Positions 193 to 64,000 of a stretch of 64,000 nt of DNA are shown here, piece by piece. Made by a program: the position numbers and the translations under genes. This stretch comes from an uncultured Clostridia bacterium. Its GTDB lineage: Bacteria; Bacillota; Clostridia; TANB77; CAG-508. The notes beneath the pieces are model-generated. The model was not told the origin of the DNA, made no database searches, and worked only from the letters and a program-made list of their open reading frames with translations. Location of the stretch: the NCBI GenBank assembly GCA_934141445.1, contig CAKPCF010000004.1, positions 15,526 through 79,525 of the forward strand. The letters are read 5' to 3'. Numbering within the stretch: the stretch's first letter is position 1; each line of letters opens with the position of its first letter.

Positions 193-346
193 TTACATAT
201 TCCTTTCATATCAATTTAAACTATTATAATTATAGCTTATTCATCTTTAATAGTCAAATAATTTTATACTATAATATATTTGGTATGTTTTTATAAATAC
301 ATGCTGATTGTTGGTTTATAAAGTTAACATAATTTTATAAATTTTC

Positions 347-375
347 TTGACATTTATTCCCAATGGATTTATAAT
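347..375 (+). promoter_or_regulatory. Sigma-70-type promoter of the 64-aa ORF unit
   Basis: TTGACA (347-352), 17-nt spacer, TATAAT (370-375). Both hexamers match consensus exactly at optimal spacing, about 55 nt upstream of the ATG at 432. Confidence 0.55.
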
Positions 376-431
376 AAATTTATGCGGTATTTTGGTATCG
401 TAAATACATATTTTTTGAGAGGTATTTTGTT

Positions 432-626
432 ATGGCTTCTTTCGTGAAGAACTCGTGCATCAACAACCCCACCGTTACTGTACAGCGGATGACTAATTTC
501 ATGGTCGATCCTAAGCGTGTAGGAAATGCAGTTGCTAACAGCAACTATTACTGGTGGACTTGGCAACAAAAGCATCGTGAATTCTTGAAAAGCGTGGAGA
601 CAGCAAAACGTCAGGTTAACCTGTGA
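432..626 (+). CDS. Hypothetical 64-aa soluble protein (NYYWWTWQQ aromatic patch), foreign composition
   Basis: ORF track. GAGAGG (417-422) lies 9 nt before the ATG. Codons end mostly in G/C (hand count about 45% GC, 88/195). It has its own promoter and terminator. I recognise no family, and a non-coding RNA cannot be excluded. Confidence 0.45.
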   Translation: MASFVKNSCINNPTVTVQRMTNFMVDPKRVGNAVANSNYYWWTWQQKHREFLKSVETAKRQVNL

Positions 627-696
627 GCTGTATTCATAAGTCACAACATCAAAAAAGACTGAGGTTTCCCCCTAAAAACCTTAGTTAATCCTCACG

Positions 697-745
697 CACC
701 GTCAGTGAGCTGTCCAGCCTGGGCAACACTGACGGTGTTTTTATT
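697..745 (+). terminator. Rho-independent terminator of the 64-aa ORF unit
   Basis: An 11-bp perfect stem, CACCGTCAGTG (697-707) with CACTGACGGTG (727-737), is followed by TTTTTATTTTATT. Confidence 0.75.
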
Positions 746-775
746 TTATTCTGAAAAAATAGTAAACTCAATTTT

Positions 776-804
776 TTGACAATTATGTAAAGTCGTGTTA
801 TAAT
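776..804 (+). promoter_or_regulatory. Sigma-70-type promoter (extended -10) of the paralog pair
   Basis: TTGACA (776-781), 17-nt spacer, TGT-TATAAT (796-804). The hexamers match consensus exactly and there is a TGn extension. Confidence 0.6.
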
Positions 805-875
805 ATTGTTTATTCGAAATTATTTTTGATTTTTATGAAAGGGTGGTATTTTTTGACTACTTAGAATCACTTCAT

Positions 876-964
876 GTTCGAATATTCACCACTGCAAGAA
901 TATAATAGTTCTTGTTGCAAATGGAGCATTTGCTCTAAGGAGTAAAACAATGGAAGAAAACATT
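876..964 (+). repeat. Conserved structured leader, copy A (includes RBS and first 5 codons of the 950 gene)
   Basis: 83/89 nt are identical to 1329-1417 at a constant offset of 453 nt. It contains hairpin CAAGAAT/GTTCTTG, hairpin GCAAATG-GAG-CATTTGC, then AAGGAG 8 nt before the ATG. Confidence 0.85.
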
Positions 965-1312
965 GTAGCATGGACATTGCTGAATAGATTTGAGAAAGAC
1001 TATAACTTGATATCTTCTTTTCAGCCTAAATTTGAAACTGTGCAAAACTCTGATGCCTTTCAGAAGTTGCTCGATGAATGTGTCGGCTTTTTTGACTGTA
1101 CCCTTCTAGGTAGAGTAGATAATGGTGTTTTTCCTATTAGCTACAGCCTAATATGTGGAGTTATCGACACAACTTCAGAAATTAGAGAGATTGATAAGGA
1201 AATTCCTTTTTCTCTTGATATTGCACGTGATGCTGTTGTTAATATGCTGTCTGCATTAACGCAAGCTTATCAAAAGGAGCTTGAAATCTTTAAAAGAAAT
1301 AACAATCTTTAA
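950..1312 (+). CDS. Hypothetical 120-aa acidic protein, paralog 1
   Basis: ORF track with an AAGGAG RBS. By eye it is about 40% identical to the 1403 product (shared SSF..F..VQNSD.F..LL..C, FP.S, A.VNM..AL...YQKELE.F). No family recognised. Confidence 0.7.
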   Translation: MEENIVAWTLLNRFEKDYNLISSFQPKFETVQNSDAFQKLLDECVGFFDCTLLGRVDNGVFPISYSLICGVIDTTSEIREIDKEIPFSLDIARDAVVNMLSALTQAYQKELEIFKRNNNL

Positions 1313-1328
1313 AGACTTTACAACCAAA

Positions 1329-1417
1329 GTTCGAATATTCACCACTGCAAGAGTACAATAACTCTTGTTGCAAATGGAGCATTTGCTCTAAGGAGTAAAA
1401 CAATGGAAAAAGACATT
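1329..1417 (+). repeat. Conserved structured leader, copy B
   Basis: See copy A. The four differences upstream of the ATG all fall in the first hairpin (two stem pairs changed with pairing kept, one loop position). Confidence 0.85.
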
Positions 1418-1768
1418 AAGGAAATGTTGAAAACTTTCGAAGCAACCAATAGCTCTATCTCTTCTTTTCACCTTCAGTTCGGCTCTGTGCAAAACTCTGA
1501 TGAGTTTCTAGATTTGCTCATCAAATGTGCAAATTTTCTAGATGACGATGTCAAAAAAGGCATAGATGAAAGCATTTTTCCTGTAAGCAACTGTTTGGTC
1601 TGGGGGTTTAGTGATGTCATCAGTTACCTTATCCATGTAGATATCAATGTATATGAAAATTCTTATCCTCTTGATATCACTAGTGAGGCTATCGTCAACA
1701 TGATGTTTGCTTTGCGTTGTTCCTATCAGAAAGAGCTGGAGGCTTTTAGAAAAGACAACAAAGCTTAA
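1403..1768 (+). CDS. Hypothetical 121-aa acidic protein, paralog 2
   Basis: ORF track with the same AAGGAG RBS context. Paralogous to 950..1312. Confidence 0.7.
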   Translation: MEKDIKEMLKTFEATNSSISSFHLQFGSVQNSDEFLDLLIKCANFLDDDVKKGIDESIFPVSNCLVWGFSDVISYLIHVDINVYENSYPLDITSEAIVNMMFALRCSYQKELEAFRKDNKA

Positions 1769-1808
1769 AAAACTCACATCAATATTTCTTCTTTGTTTAA
1801 ATCCTAGC

Positions 1809-1876
1809 AAAAAGTTGCCAGTTCGTGCAAGATTTAGCTGAAATTGCTAATCATTGCACAGCTGGCAACTTTTTTA
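1809..1876. terminator. Long GC-rich bidirectional hairpin terminator
   Basis: AGTTGCCAG (1813-1821) pairs with CTGGCAACT (1862-1870), with further inner pairing (GTGCAA/TTGCAC). An A-run lies on the left and TTTTTT on the right. It can stop both the plus-strand paralog operon and the converging minus-strand sigma operon. Confidence 0.7.
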
Positions 1877-1950
1877 TTTATAAATCTTAAAACTAACAAA
1901 TTCATCTTCAAGTCATTGTAAAACTAACATTGTAATAATACTATAGCATT

Positions 1951-5790: not shown

Positions 5791-5870
5791 ACAACCTCAC
5801 TACAATATTATTTTTATAGAACAGATTATAACATATTCAAAATATTTTTCAACTAATGTCTCATATAAAT

Positions 5871-5907
5871 GCCGAAGAGAGAGTTACAATCGTCCCTCTC
5901 TCTTGGC
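5871..5907 (-). terminator. Hairpin immediately 3' of the 60-aa ORF
   Basis: GCCGAAGAGAGAG (5871-5883) pairs with CTCTCTCTTGGC (5896-5907), about 12 bp with one bulge, starting 7 nt after the stop. The U-tract on the minus strand is weak (AUUUAUAU) and is stronger on the plus strand. Confidence 0.5.
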
Positions 5908-5913
5908 TTTTCT

Positions 5914-6096
5914 TTACCTCACCGTCTTTGCTGCCTCCATCAGTGCCTTGCTCTGCACAATGTACCACCGACCGTTGTCGTAGTAAGTAGTGATGCCAGG
6001 CAGGTTCTGATAAAAGGCTCGCAGTGTGTCGTACGCATCAGACTTATGGACAAAACCGAAGGCGTCTACGAGGATAAAGTTTTTAGTGTCGATCAT
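5914..6096 (-). CDS. Hypothetical 60-aa soluble protein, foreign composition
   Basis: ORF track (MIDTKNFILVDAFGFVHKSDAYDTLRAFYQNLPGITTYYDNGRWYIVQSKALMEAAKTVR). AAAGGAA RBS. Hand count 89/183 = about 49% GC. It has its own promoter and hairpin. No family recognised. Confidence 0.5.
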   Translation of the reverse strand: MIDTKNFILVDAFGFVHKSDAYDTLRAFYQNLPGITTYYDNGRWYIVQSKALMEAAKTVR

Positions 6097-6162
6097 AATG
6101 TTGTCGTTCCTTTCTGTAAAACAGGTTGTCGTTCGAACAGATTTATAATTAAATCTACCATA

Positions 6163-12188: not shown

Positions 12189-13235
12189 CTAATTATTTTC
12201 AATTTGATTTGTTTCACTTAATAGCCTATCAAAATCTGATACATAATTTTTATCCTGTATAACTTTATATTTTTCATATTCGTTCTCCGCTTTTTCAACT
12301 GCTTGTTTATGTGAAATCTTACCTTTTCCATCTAAAACTTCATAATGGAAAACCTTCAAAGCATTTTCTACTTCATTTTTCCAATCTTCCATATACATAG
12401 TTATATTTCTTTCTGCATTATTTTCAGCAATATCCAAAAATAAGTTTACTAAATTATTCAAATTTTTCATTTCTTTTTCATCTAAATAATTTTTGGCAAC
12501 GATTACATCAGATTTTAATATTTTTCCATCTGGTGAGTTTTCCCAAGTAGTAAGTCCCATATGCTTTTTTTGAGAATCTGCTCTGTTATAAACTATTTCA
12601 GCAGCTGTATTTCCTGTAATTGCAAAATGAAACTTATTTTGAATGGTTTTATAAAAAATTATTGCAGTATCACTATTTTTATCATAATCAATAGAACATT
12701 CAGCAAATATATCAGTAATTTTTTGATAAAACATTCTCTCACTTGTACGAATTAACTTAATTCTTTCAAGTAATCTTTTAAAATACTCTTGATCAGATTT
12801 TTTTGCTTTTAAAAATCTTTCATCATTTAAAGCAAAACCTTGAACCATATAATCTTTAATTATTTTATTTGCCCAAGTTCTAAACTTTATTGCTTTTTTA
12901 GAGTTAACTCTAAAACCTATTGAGATAATCATATCAAGATTATAATATGGATAAATTCTTTTAACCTCACGAGTTCCTTCTATTTGAACTTGTGCAATTT
13001 TTGCACAAGTTGTATTTGCATCCAACTCTTCATCCTTATAAATATTGTTAATATGTCTTACAATTCCACTTCTGTCAATATTAAAAAGTGTTGCTAATGC
13101 TTCAGTATTTAACCATACATCTTCATTTTCTAATAGAACTTCTACTTTTGTATTGCCTTCTTCATCACTATAAAATAAAATGTTTTTCTCATTTCCAATT
13201 GATTTGTTATCCAATGCTTGTCCCTCCTTTTTCAA
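12189..13235 (-). CDS. RhuM-family protein
   Basis: The N-terminal FYSDEEGNTKVEVLLENEDVWLN and YNLDMIISIGFRVNSKKAIKFRTWA are the characteristic RhuM pattern. Confidence 0.8.
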   Translation of the reverse strand: MKKEGQALDNKSIGNEKNILFYSDEEGNTKVEVLLENEDVWLNTEALATLFNIDRSGIVRHINNIYKDEELDANTTCAKIAQVQIEGTREVKRIYPYYNLDMIISIGFRVNSKKAIKFRTWANKIIKDYMVQGFALNDERFLKAKKSDQEYFKRLLERIKLIRTSERMFYQKITDIFAECSIDYDKNSDTAIIFYKTIQNKFHFAITGNTAAEIVYNRADSQKKHMGLTTWENSPDGKILKSDVIVAKNYLDEKEMKNLNNLVNLFLDIAENNAERNITMYMEDWKNEVENALKVFHYEVLDGKGKISHKQAVEKAENEYEKYKVIQDKNYVSDFDRLLSETNQIENN

Positions 13236-16435: not shown

Positions 16436-17732
16436 TTATCTAAAAGTTATATCTGCTTTATCATATTCTTCTGGTTTTAAACCTAATCTAGTAAGCATAT
16501 ACACGTATAATATAAATGTAAATACTAAAAAGATTATTCCGCCTATTATCATAGATATTTTTATGTCAAAATGATTTAATATTACAGTACCTACTATTCC
16601 AACTAACATTCTCATTAAGTTTGAAACTATTGACTCTGTTGTATATACTTTTGCCAAAGTTTCATCATCTATAAAATTGTTCATATATTGTCTTTTTAAA
16701 ATTTGAGAAATTCCTTTGCACATTCCAACCAAAAAATATGCAAATAAAATTACAGCCAATTTAATAATTAAATGAAGATTAGATAAAGCCACCAAACCAC
16801 ATATTACAAAACTTAGTGAATTCCATACTCCGTATTACAGTCAATGTTTTATTTCTATATTTCCTATTTGTTTCAACTGCAGTTTTAGAAGCAATTCCTA
16901 CAAAGACTTGATATAAAGCATCAAATATTCCTATTACAGTTGCTGACACTCCAATTTGATCAAGTAAATCAACCTTATATGTATTAAACAAGCAAATTAT
17001 TCCCCATAAAAATCCTACTGAAAAAAGTAAAGCTCTTAATCGTTTAGAATTAAATATGAAAGAAAATGATTCTTTTAAATTTTTAATATATTCTTTAAAA
17101 TTGCCTTTAGTTTTTTCCTTTTCATTCTGCTCTTCTAATCTTATATCACTAAAGTTTGCCGAAATAAGAGTAGCAAGTAATGAACAAATAAAACATAATA
17201 TCATTGGTATATATGGATTGATATCATACAAAACTCCTGCTAATATTGATGAAACAGCTGCTACATAACAATACTTTGAGTATCCTTTTGCATTTATGCT
17301 TGAAAATATTTCATTTTTATTTGTACATTCAGGAATTGAATCATTTAATATACATGATTCTGTTATTCCTTTTAAAGCAAAGGCTATTGCTGTTACACAC
17401 TCCTCTATTAAAAATGTTAAAAAATTAGGACAGAATATAACTGTTAATATACATAGTGTATTTATTATATTCCCTATAAGAAGTGATTTACTTTTTCCAA
17501 CTTTATCTACAAAAACTAAAGCTGGTATTTGTACTACTATACTTGTAAAGGCATAGGCAGAACCAGCTAAAACAATTTCAGATACACTAATCCCCTTTAA
17601 TTGTGTTAGAAACAGTACTTGTATTGCATAATAAAAAATAAAATCCAATCCAAGCATATTATAAATTGGAAATATTTTGATATTCAATTTTCTCTTTTTT
17701 CTCTCTTCAACATCTTTTTCTTTTGTTTTCAT
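16436..17732 (-). pseudogene. MFS transporter interrupted by a single frameshift
   Basis: The 317-aa and 119-aa ORFs are contiguous halves of one polytopic protein. Around 16830 the hydrophobic reading continues in the +1 frame (..YGVWNSLSFVICGLVALSNLHLII..), while the upstream frame ends 17 codons later at the TAA at 16779-16781. The site is not in a homopolymer run. Confidence 0.65.
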
Positions 17733-17831
17733 TTTTATTTCCTATCTTTTATTTAATATAATTTTATATACTATTTTATATCATTTAACTCCAAAAAAGT
17801 AAACTGCTTTTATCACATTTTAACATATTGC

Positions 17832-17887
17832 TCATACACTTTACTAATTTTAATATTAAAAGATGGTTTATATGTTTGTTTTCAATT
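17832..17887 (+). repeat. 56-bp direct repeat, left copy (decayed copy of the RBS and first 5 codons of the 18344 gene)
   Basis: 53/56 identical to 18304-18359 at an offset of 472 nt. The SD is AGATGG here versus AGGTGG in the right copy. The ATG at 17872 opens a 36-codon frame that runs into the island. Confidence 0.9.
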
Positions 17888-17888
17888 A

Positions 17889-17929
17889 TAAAAAAGAAAA
17901 CTCCCACTCAGCCAAGTTGCCAAATGGGA
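17889..17929 (-). terminator. Possible terminator of the 59-aa membrane ORF
   Basis: On the minus strand a short stem UCCCA/UGGGA (17929-17925 / 17906-17902) is followed by GUUUUCUUUUUU. The stem is weak and the U-tract is strong. Confidence 0.4.
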
Positions 17930-17956
17930 TAAAAGAAAAATTCTTTTCGATTGCGC

Positions 17957-18136
17957 TTAGAGAATCCAAGCCACCCAAGTAAGTCCGATAAGCACAATGG
18001 TTGCTAGAAGCAACCACTTTTCGTTCTTGTTACCATTGTAATACTTGCCAAACAGCAAGCCTACAAAGATACCAAAAACGATGCACCATACAAACACCAG
18101 AGTAACGCGGGTAGCAGCAAGATCATTAAAAAGCAT
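17957..18136 (-). CDS. Hypothetical 59-aa two-TM membrane miniprotein, foreign composition
   Basis: Hand translation: MLFNDLAATRVTLVFVWCIVFGIFVGLLFGKYYNGNKNEKWLLLATIVLIGLTWVAWIL. AAGGAG lies 8 nt upstream of the ATG at 18136. Hand count 75/180 = about 42% GC. It is one codon short of the ORF-track cut-off. Confidence 0.55.
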   Translation of the reverse strand: MLFNDLAATRVTLVFVWCIVFGIFVGLLFGKYYNGNKNEKWLLLATIVLIGLTWVAWIL

Positions 18137-18206
18137 TTTACACTCTCCTTCGCTTCGTAGCTTTACTGAAAAAATATGCTATGTGAACCCAATCAAATAT
18201 ATTTAT

Positions 18207-18235
18207 ATTATACCACAGTTTATGTTAACTGTCAA
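18207..18235 (-). promoter_or_regulatory. Sigma-70-type promoter (extended -10) of the 59-aa ORF
   Basis: On the minus strand: TTGACA (18235-18230), 17-nt spacer, TGG-TATAAT (-10 at 18212-18207). Confidence 0.6.
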
Positions 18236-18303
18236 AAAAGTTATTATTTTTCACAAAAGTATGATTGAAAAATAAAAATCTTTATCATAATTTTGTTTCT
18301 TTA

Positions 18304-18359
18304 TCATACACTTTACTAACTTTAATATAAAAAGGTGGTTTATATGTTTGTTTTCAATT
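18304..18359 (+). repeat. 56-bp direct repeat, right copy (functional RBS and start of the 18344 gene)
   Basis: See the left copy. It contains AAAGGTGG and the ATG at 18344. Confidence 0.9.
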
Positions 18360-20756: not shown

Positions 20757-22211
20757 TTATGCTTTTTCATTTACTAATTTCTTAAATTGATTTCCTCTAT
20801 CTGCAAAATTTTTGAACATATCAAAACTTGCACTTGCTGGTGAAAATAAAACTACATCTCCAGATTTTGCCAATCTTTTTGCTAACATAATTGTTTGCTC
20901 TAAAGTCTGACATTTATAAATATTAACTTTCTTTGTAGATTTTTCCATTTCATCTAATACAGCATTCTCAATTTTATCTGCTGTTTGACCAATTAAAATC
21001 AATTCTTTACAATTATCTAAAATAGGTTTTGCAAGTGGTGCATAGTCTAAATTTTTATCATATCCACCTGCTATTAAAATAATATTTCTAAGTGCAAATG
21101 AATTCAAGCCAACTATAGTTCTTGTTGGGCTAGAAGAGGCTGAATCATTATACCATTTTACTCTATTTTCTGTTTCTTTAACTAATTCAATTCTATGTTC
21201 AACACCTTTAAATTCTGAAATTGTTTTAACAGCTGTTTCAACATCTACAAAGTCTTTTGTAGCAGCTAATACTGCACAAATATTTTCAGCATTATGTTTT
21301 CCTTTTAATATAATATTTTTTGTATCTAAAATATGACTTCTTAATCCATTTTGGCAAAACTTTATTTTTCCATCATCAACAATATATCCATTTTCAAGTT
21401 TTTCTTTACTACTAAAATATATTACTCTACTATTTGCAATTTCTCCACATTTTCTTGTTATTTCATTATCATAATTTAGTATTACAACCTCTTCTGGCTT
21501 TTGATATTGGAAAATATTTTGTTTGGCTTCTATATATTCTTCCATTGAACTATGAATATTTAAGTGATTTGGTGTAATATTTGTTATTACAGATACATTT
21601 GGACTTATTTTCATATTCATCAATTGAAAACTACTTAATTCTAATACAACAAAATCATCTGGTGTCATTTCTGCTATTCTAGTAAATAAAGGATATCCAA
21701 TGTTTCCTCCTAAAAATACTTTTTTTCCACCAGCTTCCAAAACTTTTGAAATTAAAGTTGTAGTAGTTGTTTTTCCATCACTACCAGTTACACCAATAAC
21801 TTTACTTGGTGTAAGTTCCAAAACCATTTCAACTTCTGTTGTAACAATTGCACCTCTTTCAGTTTCTTTTGCTAATTCTGGAACTGTTGGTAAGCAACTT
21901 GGTGAACGAAAAATAATATCAAATCCTTGTAGCTTTCTTAAATAATCTTTTCCAAATGAAAAATTCATTCCATAGTCTATTATTTGATTGATTAAATTAT
22001 TATCTATTTTATCAATTTCTTTGTTATCAAAGACTGTAACATTTGCTTTCAATTTGTGTAAATATTCTATTAGTGGTAAGTTACTAACACCTAAACCAAT
22101 AACAGCAACTTTACTTTTCTTTAAATAATTGTTAAACTCTTCTAATTTCTCATTTTTATATGAATTTTCTAATGTACTATTTTCCATAATAATATAAACA
22201 CTCCCTTTCAT
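20757..22211 (-). CDS. murD: UDP-N-acetylmuramoylalanine--D-glutamate ligase
   Basis: VAVIGLGVSN Rossmann N-terminus and GVTGSDGKTTTT P-loop, with Mur-ligase architecture. The true start may be the internal MENST. Confidence 0.9.
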   Translation of the reverse strand: MKGSVYIIMENSTLENSYKNEKLEEFNNYLKKSKVAVIGLGVSNLPLIEYLHKLKANVTVFDNKEIDKIDNNLINQIIDYGMNFSFGKDYLRKLQGFDIIFRSPSCLPTVPELAKETERGAIVTTEVEMVLELTPSKVIGVTGSDGKTTTTTLISKVLEAGGKKVFLGGNIGYPLFTRIAEMTPDDFVVLELSSFQLMNMKISPNVSVITNITPNHLNIHSSMEEYIEAKQNIFQYQKPEEVVILNYDNEITRKCGEIANSRVIYFSSKEKLENGYIVDDGKIKFCQNGLRSHILDTKNIILKGKHNAENICAVLAATKDFVDVETAVKTISEFKGVEHRIELVKETENRVKWYNDSASSSPTRTIVGLNSFALRNIILIAGGYDKNLDYAPLAKPILDNCKELILIGQTADKIENAVLDEMEKSTKKVNIYKCQTLEQTIMLAKRLAKSGDVVLFSPASASFDMFKNFADRGNQFKKLVNEKA

Positions 22212-61350: not shown

Positions 61351-62415
61351 TTAGCAAATCTTGCCACCACCAACAACAATATCATCAATATAAAATACTG
61401 CTGACTGTCCTGGGGTTAAGGCTCTTTGGGGTTCAGCAAAGACAACTTTTATATCATTTCCTTGTTGAGAAATTTTTGCTTTAGCAGCTCTTGTAGAATA
61501 TCTTGTTTTTACTTCTACTTCCATTTCAGCTTCTATTTCATCAACTAACAATAAATTTATATCTTTAACTATAATTTCTTTTTTATAAAGCTTATCTTCT
61601 TCTCCAACAATTACTTCATTCTTTGCTCTATTAAATCCTAATACAAAAAGTGGTACTGGATTTGAAATTCCAAGTCCTTTTCTTTGACCAATAGTATAAT
61701 TATATAGTCCTGTATGTTTTCCTAAAACTTTTCCCTCTAAGTTTACAATATTTCCTGCCTTTGGCTTTATATTAGAATTGTTTTCTAAAAACTTTTTATA
61801 GTTTCCATCTGGAATAAAACAAATATCTTCACTATCTGGTTTATTAGCAACTTTTAAATTCTTTTCTCTTGCTATTTCTCTAATTTGTTCTTTACTCTCA
61901 AAATCTGAAAGTGGAAATAAAACATATTGGATTAAGTCTTTTGGAATATTCCATAATACATAACTTTGATCTTTTTTACCAGCCTTTGATTTCTTTAAAA
62001 CCCATCTACCATATTTTTCGCTATATTCAGTTTTTGCATAATGTCCAGTAGCAATATACTCGCAACCAAGTTCTTTTGCTTTTTCATACATTATTCCAAA
62101 CTTCATATATTTATTGCATTCAATACAAGGGTTTGGTGTTTTACAATTTGCATAACAATCAATAAAATCATCAATAACATATTTACTAAATTCTTTCTTA
62201 TAGTCAAAAGTAAAATGTGGTATTCCTATTGATTTACACACATTTTTAGCATCTATATATGTATTTATATTACAGCAACTACTTCCTGCATATAATTCCA
62301 AAGTAGAGCCTATTACATCATATCCTTGCTCTTTTAATAGTAAAGCAGAAACACTGCTATCTACTCCACCACTCATTCCTAATAAGACTTTTTTATTCTC
62401 CATTTTATTTTCCAT
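61351..62415 (-). CDS. mnmA: tRNA 2-thiouridine(34) synthase
   Basis: PP-loop GMSGGVDSS, CNK..KF, ATGHYA, with typical length. Confidence 0.95.
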   Translation of the reverse strand: MENKMENKKVLLGMSGGVDSSVSALLLKEQGYDVIGSTLELYAGSSCCNINTYIDAKNVCKSIGIPHFTFDYKKEFSKYVIDDFIDCYANCKTPNPCIECNKYMKFGIMYEKAKELGCEYIATGHYAKTEYSEKYGRWVLKKSKAGKKDQSYVLWNIPKDLIQYVLFPLSDFESKEQIREIAREKNLKVANKPDSEDICFIPDGNYKKFLENNSNIKPKAGNIVNLEGKVLGKHTGLYNYTIGQRKGLGISNPVPLFVLGFNRAKNEVIVGEEDKLYKKEIIVKDINLLLVDEIEAEMEVEVKTRYSTRAAKAKISQQGNDIKVVFAEPQRALTPGQSAVFYIDDIVVGGGKIC

Positions 62416-62886: not shown

Positions 62887-64000
62887 TTAAACTTTTATAT
62901 ATTTTTTAAACATATTATATGCTTTTTCAAGTGCTACAACAAGTTTATCTACATCTTCTTTAGTATTGTAGAAATAAAAGCTTGCTCTACAAGTTGAATC
63001 TATGCCTAAAAATCTCATTAGTGGTTGTGCACAATGATTACCAGAACGCACACATACACCTTCTGAATCTAAAATACTTGCAACATCATGTGGATGAACT
63101 CCTTTTATATTAAACGAAATAACAGATGAATGATGTTCATCATTATTAGTTAAATATAAATCTAAAAAGTCTAATTTTCTTAATTGCTCTCTAGCATATT
63201 TTAATATTTCATGTTCCTTTTCTTGTATTGCATCATATCCAATTTTTTGAATATAATCAATTGCAGCGCCAAGACCTACTACACCTTCAACATTCTGTGT
63301 TCCAGCTTCAAATTTATTTGGTAAACTAGCAAATGTAGTATCTTGTTCATAAACATATTCAATCATATCTCCACCCATTAAAAATGGTGATATACTATTT
63401 AAAATTTCTCTTTTTCCATATAATATTCCAATTCCCAATGGTGCTAACATTTTATGGCCTGAAAACACTACAAAATCCGCATCTAAAGCTTGTACATCAA
63501 GTCTCATATGAGGAATACTTTGTGAAGCATCTAATACAACTATTGCTCCTTTTTTATGTGCAAGTTTTATAATTTTTTCTACATTATTTATTGTTCCTAA
63601 CACATTTGATACATAAGTAATTCCAACAATTTTTGTTTTATCTGTAATTTTGCTTTCTATTTCTTCATCAGAAAGTTCAAAATTTTCGTTAATATACATA
63701 TAATTTAGTTTTGCATTTTTAGTTTTAGCAACTTTTTGCCAAGGAACTAAATTTGAATGATGTTCCATTACTGAAATAACAATTTCATCATCTTTTTGTA
63801 TTTTATCCAAACCATAAGAATATGCAATTAAATTTAAACTTTCTGTTGCATTTTTTGAAAAAATAACTTCTTCTCTATGCTTAGCATTTATAAATTCAGC
63901 TATTTTAGTTCTAGTATTCTCATAAATTTCCGTCGCATCTTGACTTAATGTATATGCACCTCTATGAGGATTTGCATTCAAATTTTTATAAAAATTTTCT
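62887..64000 (-). CDS. sufS: Class II cysteine desulfurase (5' end beyond window)
   Basis: HHSN, SGHKM (PLP Lys), and RSGNHCAQPL active-site loop. The frame stays open to the window edge. Confidence 0.85.
   Translation of the reverse strand, partial: ENFYKNLNANPHRGAYTLSQDATEIYENTRTKIAEFINAKHREEVIFSKNATESLNLIAYSYGLDKIQKDDEIVISVMEHHSNLVPWQKVAKTKNAKLNYMYINENFELSDEEIESKITDKTKIVGITYVSNVLGTINNVEKIIKLAHKKGAIVVLDASQSIPHMRLDVQALDADFVVFSGHKMLAPLGIGILYGKREILNSISPFLMGGDMIEYVYEQDTTFASLPNKFEAGTQNVEGVVGLGAAIDYIQKIGYDAIQEKEHEILKYAREQLRKLDFLDLYLTNNDEHHSSVISFNIKGVHPHDVASILDSEGVCVRSGNHCAQPLMRFLGIDSTCRASFYFYNTKEDVDKLVVALEKAYNMFKKYIKV

Follow-up and report, generated by a model that had tools for sequence, protein, structure and literature searches.

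The window analysed here, a 64-kb stretch of contig CAKPCF010000004.1 from an uncultured gut Clostridia bacterium, carries a 416-bp cassette between secA and a gene for a DUF1980-like membrane protein. The cassette encodes a predicted two-helix miniprotein, ORF59, under its own promoter and terminator, and is bracketed by a 56-bp direct repeat of the 5′ end of the DUF1980 gene. A reading made from the sequence alone (the sequence-only reading) had taken this repeat for the attL and attR sites of a site-specific mobile cassette. Comparison with other loci of the same species does not bear this out: the cassette occupies the same site in 35 of 35 conspecific loci, none of which is empty, no second copy turned up in the collections searched, and the left half of the repeat is present in only three of the carriers. 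The account that best explains the whole, and to which we give about an even chance, is that of a compositionally alien, autonomous gene, resident at one site in every sampled strain and flanked in one haplotype by a repeat scar that formed without a recombinase. The 56-bp repeat is not part of the cassette’s own machinery, and the cassette is not demonstrably mobile at present. A long, att-like direct repeat around foreign DNA can thus be a one-haplotype scar at a gene-turnover slot, and it is comparison at the population level that separates the two readings.

The conspecific set comprises the window and 34 fetched loci, drawn from independent metagenome assemblies and metagenome-assembled genomes of one uncultured gut Clostridia species. 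These were found with the DUF1980 protein as anchor and have flanks 97-99% identical to the window. Thirty-three of the 35 loci are free of gaps; the other two (L020 and L021, both MERR22 scaffolds) have runs of N in place of most of the cassette, which indicates that the locus can be hard to assemble. The short spacers of these two loci were considered as partial deletions, that is, as a 148-bp-shorter allele, and this was rejected, as they consist of N runs over most of the cassette. Twelve representative alleles were aligned, the window and 11 that lack the neighbouring MFS transporter gene, and the ribosome-binding site (RBS) was judged in 11 printed alleles. Loci of sister species, whose DUF1980 proteins are 75-79% identical, were also fetched. 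Fourteen further places, flagged as having mostly the same neighbour genes as the window, L006 and L007, were not fetched and lie outside all counts.

An autonomous transcription unit of alien composition

The sequence-only reading had described the 416 bp as a compositionally distinct, self-contained unit for a two-helix miniprotein, and the promoter, RBS, open reading frame (ORF), terminator and GC content all support that description (Table 1). The GC content of the cassette is 0.41-0.42 (about 41% in the transcribed part) against about 0.26 for the window. At third codon positions (GC3), ORF59 reaches 0.47 against 0.136 +/- 0.022 in the host (49 ORFs, maximum 0.195). The GC-richness is limited to the transcribed part; the promoter region is AT-rich, as is the 72-bp filler that adjoins the cassette in most strains. 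This composition points to lateral acquisition of the cassette, or at least to a sequence alien to its surroundings.

Table 1. Coordinates of the cassette, the repeat and the adjoining features in the window
Feature	Position	Strand	Remarks
Cassette, 416 bp	17888-18303	-	One autonomous transcription unit; hyper-divergent block
Promoter TTGACA-17-TGnTATAAT, sigma-70-type	18207-18235	-	12/12 consensus match, extended -10 TG
Ribosome-binding site AAGGAGAG	18143-18150	-	6 nt upstream of ATG 18136
ORF59, 59 aa, MLFNDLAATRVTLVFVWCIVFGIFVGLLFGKYYNGNKNEKWLLLATIVLIGLTWVAWIL	17957-18136	-	Predicted two-helix hairpin, Lys-rich connecting loop
Intrinsic terminator	17890-17929	-	11-pair hairpin 17929-17902, then GUUUUCUUUUUU tail
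Predicted mRNA, 311 nt	17890-18200	-	Unusually stable predicted fold
Left repeat copy	17832-17887	+	-40..+17 of DUF1980 gene: RBS region, ATG 17872, codons 1-5
Right repeat copy, functional	18304-18359	+	RBS AGGTGG, ATG 18344, codons 1-5 of DUF1980_C gene
Distal MFS-DUF1980 intergenic region, native	17733-17831		Abuts MFS start 17732; retained only in MFS-bearing haplotype
MFS transporter pseudogene	16436-17732	-	317-aa + 119-aa overlapping ORFs; frameshift near 16779-16795
DUF1980_C / TIGR03943-like membrane protein gene, 185 aa	18344-18901	+	5′ end is the duplicated sequence

The signals of the unit are shared throughout the species. The promoter pattern TTGACA-17-TGnTATAAT, with three degenerate spacer positions, is present in 35 of 35 loci. 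The terminator is found in 33 of 35, which are all the gap-free ones, the two exceptions being scaffold N-gaps. In the window the terminator hairpin is more stable than expected (z = -3.3), and its U tract runs to about position 17890, where its end is also the left edge of the cassette. The GGAG core of the RBS (AGGAG in most) is kept in 11 of 11 printed alleles, with variation in the neighbouring bases. Between these fixed points the cassette diverges strongly: from L003, L008 and L009 the window differs by about 1-2.5% in the flanks, but by 6-10% over the ORF part and by 16-24% over the promoter part. The spacer between promoter and right repeat (18237-18303) occurs as two very different haplotypes, one of which has a 13-bp deletion and many substitutions. 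Cassette alleles combine ORF haplotypes with promoter-region haplotypes in mosaic fashion, a sign of recombination inside the cassette. The DUF1980 gene has had its native promoter region displaced.

The 56-bp direct repeat

The two copies of the repeat match at 53 of 56 positions and start 472 bp apart. A 24-nt core of the repeat (one degenerate base, up to three mismatches) occurs twice in the 64-kb window and in none of 100 shuffles; alignment and pattern count together confirm the repeat that had been proposed from the sequence. The right copy holds, as was also proposed, the functional RBS AGGTGG and the first five codons of a DUF1980-like gene, whose product matches PF21537 with E = 1.3e-23 and 83.6 bits (gathering cut-off 25.9) and TIGR03943 at 1.4e-20, below that model’s curated cut-off. 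A repeat search stretched the register to 95 nt at 82%, and a duplication of 79-95 bp was accordingly considered. It was rejected, as the part upstream of the 56-mer has no significant similarity (local alignment against shuffles, p = 0.91); nor did comparison of 17733-17831 with 18237-18303, the stretch upstream of the right copy, reveal any. The repeat is therefore 56 bp long with sharp edges, and its left copy ends at a blunt junction, 17887/17888.

The position of the repeat relative to the cassette is equally sharp in the population. Divergence between strains drops from 16-24% to zero exactly at 18303/18304, and the start of the right copy at 18304 is the point where the cassette block meets native sequence in all aligned alleles. 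The right copy is identical in 12 of 12 representative alleles (its first 42 nt being unchecked in the remaining loci). The left copy runs on directly from the native MFS-DUF1980 intergenic region and keeps its ancestral context beside the MFS gene, as in the sister-species locus L004. From the drop in divergence at 18304 and the native setting of the left copy, the repeat appears to be a stretch of homology common to a cassette-bearing and an MFS-bearing haplotype, both of which the window haplotype would hold.

The left copy had been regarded as a decayed duplicate with a mutated Shine-Dalgarno sequence. It is indeed a non-functional duplicate of the DUF1980 5′ end, but its AGATGG is probably not a decayed form of the AGGTGG in the right copy. 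The same place reads GGATGG in sister species (GATGG in L004 and L018), which makes A, in the left copy, the likely ancestral base and G, in the right copy, the likely derived one. Overall, the divergence between the copies is 5.4%, close to what neutral change produces between strains (host pS, synonymous polymorphism, 0.059-0.071). The start codons of the left copy read into the cassette and open a plus-strand ORF of 36-39 aa (17863-17982), which runs opposite to the 3′ end of ORF59. Should the native promoter in 17733-17831 still be active, an antisense transcript would be made, and by the MFS-bearing haplotype alone.

Two haplotypes at the slot between secA and the DUF1980 gene

The left 56-mer occurs only in the window, L006 and L007, always together with a frameshifted MFS gene. 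In the other 32 loci there is no MFS gene, and a shared 72-bp AT-rich filler replaces window positions 16438-17887. The repeat structure is identical in L006 and L007, which are independent assemblies; the duplication is therefore not an assembly artefact, a possibility that the sequence-only reading had raised. The 317-aa N-terminal ORF of the MFS gene is likewise called identically in both, with downstream ORFs of 95 aa and 82 aa, and the recurrence of this split in independent assemblies identifies a real pseudogene. Its two ORFs in the window are 60% and 56% identical in amino acid sequence to the MFS protein of L004, and orthologues of 426-449 aa are intact in a sister species (L004, L014, L016 and L017).

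The filler was considered as a decayed left copy, the two having TCACATTTT and TTACTAATTTTA in common by eye; Smith-Waterman alignment against shuffles (p = 0.51) led to its rejection. As the filler is unrelated to the left copy, the MFS-less haplotype is not a simple deletion derivative of the window haplotype. The cassette allele of the window has at least five substitutions (read from the alignment, untallied) that are absent from all 11 aligned MFS-less alleles. The cassette-bearing, MFS-less haplotype is abundant (32 loci), and the MFS-bearing, cassette-free type is found only in a sister species (L004, L013-L017).

Relatives with an uninterrupted site, which the sequence-only reading had suggested seeking, are lacking among the 35 conspecific loci, and the cassette is missing only from other species. 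The further cassette copies for which it had proposed a search are present neither in the window nor in the collections searched. It had also allowed that all relatives might share the duplication at host-like composition; as found, the cassette is common to all conspecific loci, the duplication is not, and the composition departs from that of the host.

The content of this slot varies among sister species: an intact MFS gene (L004, 2932-4218; also L013-L017), a GNAT acetyltransferase gene with a 39-aa ORF (L018, 2628-3303), a HipA_C kinase gene that matches the PADLOC candidate PDC-M03A (L010, 682-1539), or no gene (L005, 2811-3143). The cassette is in none of the sister-species slots fetched. 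Judged by these loci, the slot between secA and the DUF1980 gene is a site of gene turnover bounded by conserved flanks.

Origin of the repeat

That the repeat is the scar, confined to one haplotype, of a recombinase-free single crossover or of illegitimate recombination is a reading we hold with roughly balanced confidence. Two steps would suffice. About 488 bp, the filler plus the cassette, would have replaced the MFS gene and the distal intergenic region in one lineage, as ordinary turnover of an islet. A fragment made of the cassette and 56 bp of the DUF1980 5′ region would then have passed from this MFS-less haplotype into an MFS-bearing chromosome. It may have entered by a Campbell-type single crossover in the 56-bp homology after blunt circularisation or, alternatively, by one-sided homologous and illegitimate joining. 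By either route the insert would end up between two copies of precisely the homologous segment. We infer both the order of these events and the mechanism of the crossover.

Several points weigh against this reconstruction. The partner that it requires, an MFS-bearing strain free of the cassette, is not among the 35 loci. The junction 17887/17888 is without microhomology, which fits blunt circularisation and not classical homology-facilitated illegitimate recombination, and a homology of 56 bp is short for a RecA-dependent crossover. The substitutions confined to the window’s cassette allele would equally fit a history in which the window arrangement is ancestral and the MFS-less haplotype arose by later deletion from a larger inserted element. 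Foreign origin is, moreover, argued from composition, with no known donor and no GC amelioration, so that part of the high GC could be due to selection acting on the RNA or on the protein.

The main rival keeps the repeat as a true attL/attR pair. A prophage, an integrative and conjugative element or a small integrative module would have entered the DUF1980 5′ end, bringing a replacement gene end, and would since have decayed to a moron-like remnant of 416 bp; a second deletion that removed the MFS gene, attL and most of the element would have left the 72-bp filler and so the MFS-less haplotype. This is unlikely, although well within the range to be taken seriously, and so, to a similar degree, is a variant in which an ancestor with the MFS gene received a larger element once, whether through att recombination or through a Campbell event. 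Direct repeats of a target gene end, with the functional copy adjoining the foreign DNA, are what such integration leaves behind. The layout of promoter, gene and terminator together with aberrant composition is that by which phage morons are defined (PMC3594210). The private substitutions of the window allele, set against the 11 MFS-less alleles, are compatible with an ancestral window arrangement; loss of DNA by deletion is the prevailing trend in bacterial genomes, and decay of the MFS gene to a pseudogene has already taken place. Against this stand the three events required, one integration and two independent deletions, each ending no more than 72 bp from the terminator, and the lack of the att-like repeat in 32 of 35 carriers. 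Neither an integrase gene nor any phage or conjugation gene lies at the locus or close to it, PHROG has no match, and no relative of the ORF or the DNA was found in IMG/VR, the phage and plasmid collections or 5.8 billion proteins.

The statement of the sequence-only reading that no recombinase is encoded in the 416 bp or the window holds for those ORFs of 170 aa or longer that were compared with Pfam, two of 50 (61351-62415 and 62887-63981) being unscanned; a trans-acting integrase encoded elsewhere in the genome is possible. The product of one further gene, MurD (20757-22211), was judged only through the annotation of orthologues in related loci. The scar and the att remnant agree in the essential consequence that the repeat is historical and the cassette not currently mobile.

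Insertion of a mini-cassette by a transposase-type or integron-type enzyme, with the repeat as its target-site duplication, is effectively refuted, even though direct repeats do surround a short insert. Transposons, insertion sequences and miniature inverted-repeat transposable elements are marked by terminal inverted repeats, target-site duplications of 2-15 bp and multiple copies, and integron cassettes by a promoterless ORF followed by attC, in an array beside intI. At 56 bp the repeat is far beyond known target-site duplications, as the sequence-only reading had rightly observed, and no terminal inverted repeats were reported at 17888/18303. The cassette has its own promoter and terminator, unlike integron cassettes, and lies in no array; the scanned ORFs include no integrase, and attC was not specifically searched. 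Neither the window nor any collection searched has a second copy of the cassette, and, here too, the repeat is missing from 32 of 35 carriers.

ORF59, a predicted membrane hairpin

ORF59 is intact, with 59 or 58 aa, in 33 of 33 gap-free loci, which carry 12 protein alleles without a frameshift or stop. Its single indel is an in-frame loss of 3 nt (codon 2), whereas the non-coding parts of the cassette have indels of 1, 2 and 13 nt. The ratio of non-synonymous to synonymous polymorphism (pN/pS) is 0.26-0.72. The conserved promoter, terminator, RBS core and ORF length, the in-frame indel and a pN/pS below one mark ORF59, at the level of sequence, as a functional gene. It is called as a gene of 59 or 58 aa at a few loci (for example L001, L002, L026, L030 and L045), and the other returned gene tables list none there; orphan small membrane protein genes of this kind mostly escape annotation.

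The AlphaFold2 model of ORF59 has helices at residues 2-34 and 37-58 (pLDDT 78). The loop between them, GKYYNGNKNEK, contains three lysines, and the C-terminus is hydrophobic (...GLTWVAWIL). By the positive-inside rule, the model suggests a membrane hairpin with both termini outside (N-out/C-out), and the protein is likely to insert into the membrane.

Homologues were sought in 5.8 billion clustered proteins and by an exhaustive HMMER pass over 1.84 billion representative proteins, where the sole relative of ORF59 is the protein of the same locus in a conspecific strain. Two further candidates from the exhaustive search (P0002 and P0003) were rejected as repetitive junk translations. IMG/VR, JGI metagenome contigs, phage records and plasmid records contain no trace of the cassette DNA or the ORF59 protein. 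The window’s allele has no match in Pfam, NCBIfam, PHROG or PADLOC, and the allele of L003 has one weak NCBIfam match, to an MFS model (E = 0.0017, far below the curated cut-off). Foldseek returned nothing significant for the predicted hairpin, the best E being 0.59 in BFVD and 3.9 in the PDB.

An origin of ORF59 as a relic of transmembrane helices 7 and 8 of the MFS protein was also considered. The window allele aligns with residues 252-307 of the L004 MFS protein at a Smith-Waterman z of about 5, the matching stretches being LFNDLA.., IFVG and NG..KN.K, and P0001 weakly matches TIGR00880 (E = 0.0017). Against a relic, the L003 allele aligns at chance level, the consensus drops two of the matching residues, HHalign gives a probability of 0.3%, and Pfam MFS_1 has no match at E <= 10. 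The candidate was rejected, and the similarity is probably due to chance.

Fold and GC content of the cassette mRNA

The minimum free energy (MFE) of the predicted 311-nt mRNA, -99.2 kcal/mol, lies well below that of its shuffles (-76.3 +/- 4.85; z = -4.72). Pairing holds in 98.9% of the cells of the consensus fold, with double changes at two pairs, a result reached by 2 of 500 shuffles. The hairpin at 17998-18016 shows a compensatory change from C-G to U-A together with wobble changes, despite a change in the peptide from LLLAT to LFATA. The RBS and the AUG are unpaired in the consensus fold. Rfam, searched at permissive thresholds (E <= 1), has no family that matches the cassette.

Polymorphisms in the cassette mRNA, counted over 10 alleles, are balanced between GC-to-AT (23) and AT-to-GC (23), where a host-like bias predicts 79% GC-to-AT (p = 9e-6), and GC3 stays at 0.41-0.47 in all cassette alleles. 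With no drift towards AT and a stable GC3, the high GC appears to be maintained and not merely inherited. Such maintenance tempers the case for a recent foreign origin and would leave room for a function at the RNA level. Synonymous polymorphism in ORF59 (pS 0.12-0.20) is two to three times that of the host (0.06-0.07). Balancing selection or an external allele pool was considered as the source of this diversity and set aside as not required, an excess of about two-fold being expected of a GC-rich sequence under AT-biased mutation; the absence of a GC-to-AT excess leaves room for either.

Possible functions

We read the cassette as a constitutive accessory gene for a small membrane protein, of the moron type, with a possible role akin to immunity or exclusion. 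Every sampled strain has it, its RBS is open in the predicted fold and no antisense promoter was detected, and for these reasons the product is likely to be kept for a benefit and to be beneficial rather than toxic.

In a type I toxin-antitoxin system, ORF59 would instead be a membrane toxin whose structured mRNA is held in check by an antisense RNA from the left flank, and addiction would explain both the fixation of the cassette and its retention through recombination events. A small hydrophobic peptide behind a strong promoter and RBS fits this picture, as do an mRNA far more structured than its shuffles (z = -4.7), with pairs kept across alleles, and the retention of the cassette in every strain. 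The slot of one sister species holds a gene with the HipA_C domain of toxin-type kinases, and on the plus strand the hairpin at 17998-18016 and a T-rich stretch could end an antisense transcript. Yet we consider such a system improbable, and ORF59 fits only in part the type I toxin profile, which the sequence-only reading had suggested beside holin-like peptides and bacteriocin-immunity proteins. A positively charged C-terminal tail has been named as characteristic of type I toxins (PMC7699646). ORF59 has none, ending in WVAWIL with its positive charges in the inter-helix loop, and it has two helices, not one. No plus-strand promoter of at least 9/12 was found between 17444 and 18250, and the left flank differs wholly between the haplotypes, so that no antisense promoter is conserved there. 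The unpaired RBS and AUG of the consensus fold argue against conserved RBS masking, and the gene is single-copy, without a PADLOC match or family relatives.

The same transcript could be a structured regulatory or dual-function RNA, its GC kept by selection on folding and its small ORF secondary. The MFE (z = -4.7), the pairing of 98.9% of cells and the compensatory changes at 17998-18016 despite an amino acid change all speak for this, as do the 23 against 23 substitutions where 79% GC-to-AT is expected and the restriction of high GC to the transcribed part. Opposed to it are the absence of an Rfam match even at E <= 1, the conservation of ORF length, start codon and RBS (33 of 33 loci), the in-frame character of the only indel and a pN/pS below one. 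The covariation, moreover, is thin, with two compensatory pairs among close relatives and a structure derived from the same sequences. We think this slightly less probable than a toxin. Further reaching, and the least probable of these three, is the idea of a selected mini-module. Of a kind not recognised before, it would consist of a species-restricted, highly structured dual-function transcript that also codes for a two-helix membrane peptide, with GC actively maintained in the face of the host’s extreme mutation bias towards AT, and capture without a recombinase beside a conserved gene start would let it spread and persist. As the window has at least two more small GC-rich units of promoter and ORF (about 346-750 and 5856-6100) and a GC-rich pair of paralogues with a repeated leader (876-1768), the organism may host a class of such units.

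Neighbouring genes and other GC-rich units

The genes around the cassette are secA, MFS, DUF1980, an AI-2E transporter gene, a CBS protein gene and murD. Just downstream of secA lies a RhuM-family gene (12189-13235, minus strand; PF13310, E = 1e-101), whose place is variable among conspecifics, being held by RhuM in L008 and by a nitroreductase in L009.

Other GC-richer units occur in the window. An intergenic unit at 346-750 (plus strand, GC 0.41-0.45) has a perfect TTGACA-17-TATAAT promoter at 347-375, a GAGAGG RBS, a 64-aa ORF at 432-626 (MASFVKNSC...) and, at about 698-750, a hairpin with its T run; Pfam, PHROG and Rfam gave no match for it. The region 776-1880 (plus strand) begins with a 12/12 promoter with extended -10 at 776-804 and ends with a long terminator hairpin at about 1815-1880. 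It contains two GC-richer paralogous genes of 120 and 121 aa (950-1312 and 1403-1768, plus strand), which match neither Pfam nor PHROG. Each is preceded by an 89-nt leader with RBS and start codon (876-964 and 1329-1417; 93% identical, spacing 453). This leader repeat at 876-1768 superficially resembles the 56-bp case, and its cause is tandem gene duplication. An islet at 5856-6100 (minus strand, GC up to 0.47) has a 60-aa ORF at 5914-6096 (MIDTKNFILVDAF...) with an AAAGGAA RBS and no Pfam, PHROG or Rfam match. The cassette has no DNA similarity to these other GC-rich islets.

Relation to known systems

Two-transmembrane immunity proteins of circular or class II bacteriocins, such as As-48D1 with about 56 aa, are like ORF59 in size and in the predicted two-helix hairpin topology, and a constitutive orphan gene of this sort would be plausible in a gut competitor. 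The resemblance is one of analogy only: neither by sequence nor by profile is ORF59 similar to any protein, and its neighbourhood is free of bacteriocin genes. Firmicutes type I toxins (the C. difficile CD0977.1 family, TxpA, BsrG and Fst) share with ORF59 the small hydrophobic peptide, strong RBS and structured mRNA; they differ from it in that ORF59 has two helices, no charged tail, no detected antisense promoter, no sequence similarity and no multicopy family.

As regards the repeat, integrative elements that duplicate their att site likewise leave a direct repeat of the target gene 5′ end with the functional copy abutting the insert, but here no integrase, empty site or other insertion was found, and most carriers lack the repeat. 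Campbell-type integration also flanks an insert with a duplication of exactly the homologous segment, and needs no recombinase gene. In E. coli, most integrants obtained through one-sided homology had taken up a circle by a single crossover, duplicating a homologous segment of 109-950 bp; the experiments were designed for homology-facilitated illegitimate recombination, and the duplicating single crossover was the commonest outcome (PMC3240628). The present case differs in that the segment has 56 bp, the junction has no microhomology and the event is a reconstruction from two haplotypes. For Vibrio, too, one-sided homology has been put forward as the way in which orphan immunity genes came to form arrays (PMC5361080).

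Phage morons resemble the cassette in being single small genes of aberrant composition with their own sigma-70-type promoter and factor-independent terminator, a layout that fits constitutive expression. Unlike them, the cassette is not in or beside a recognisable prophage, is unmatched in PHROG, lacks relatives in IMG/VR and the phage records, and is present in every sampled strain. As it stands, the locus is a modest evolutionary vignette that involves no new mechanism, with the maintained GC and the hyper-structured mRNA as two unusual features. What is new is one more member, without homologues, of a known kind: orphan genes for small membrane proteins that resemble morons and sit at slots of gene turnover. 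If its peptide or RNA is protective or addictive, it would represent a new family in the poorly charted small-protein repertoire of uncultured gut Clostridia.

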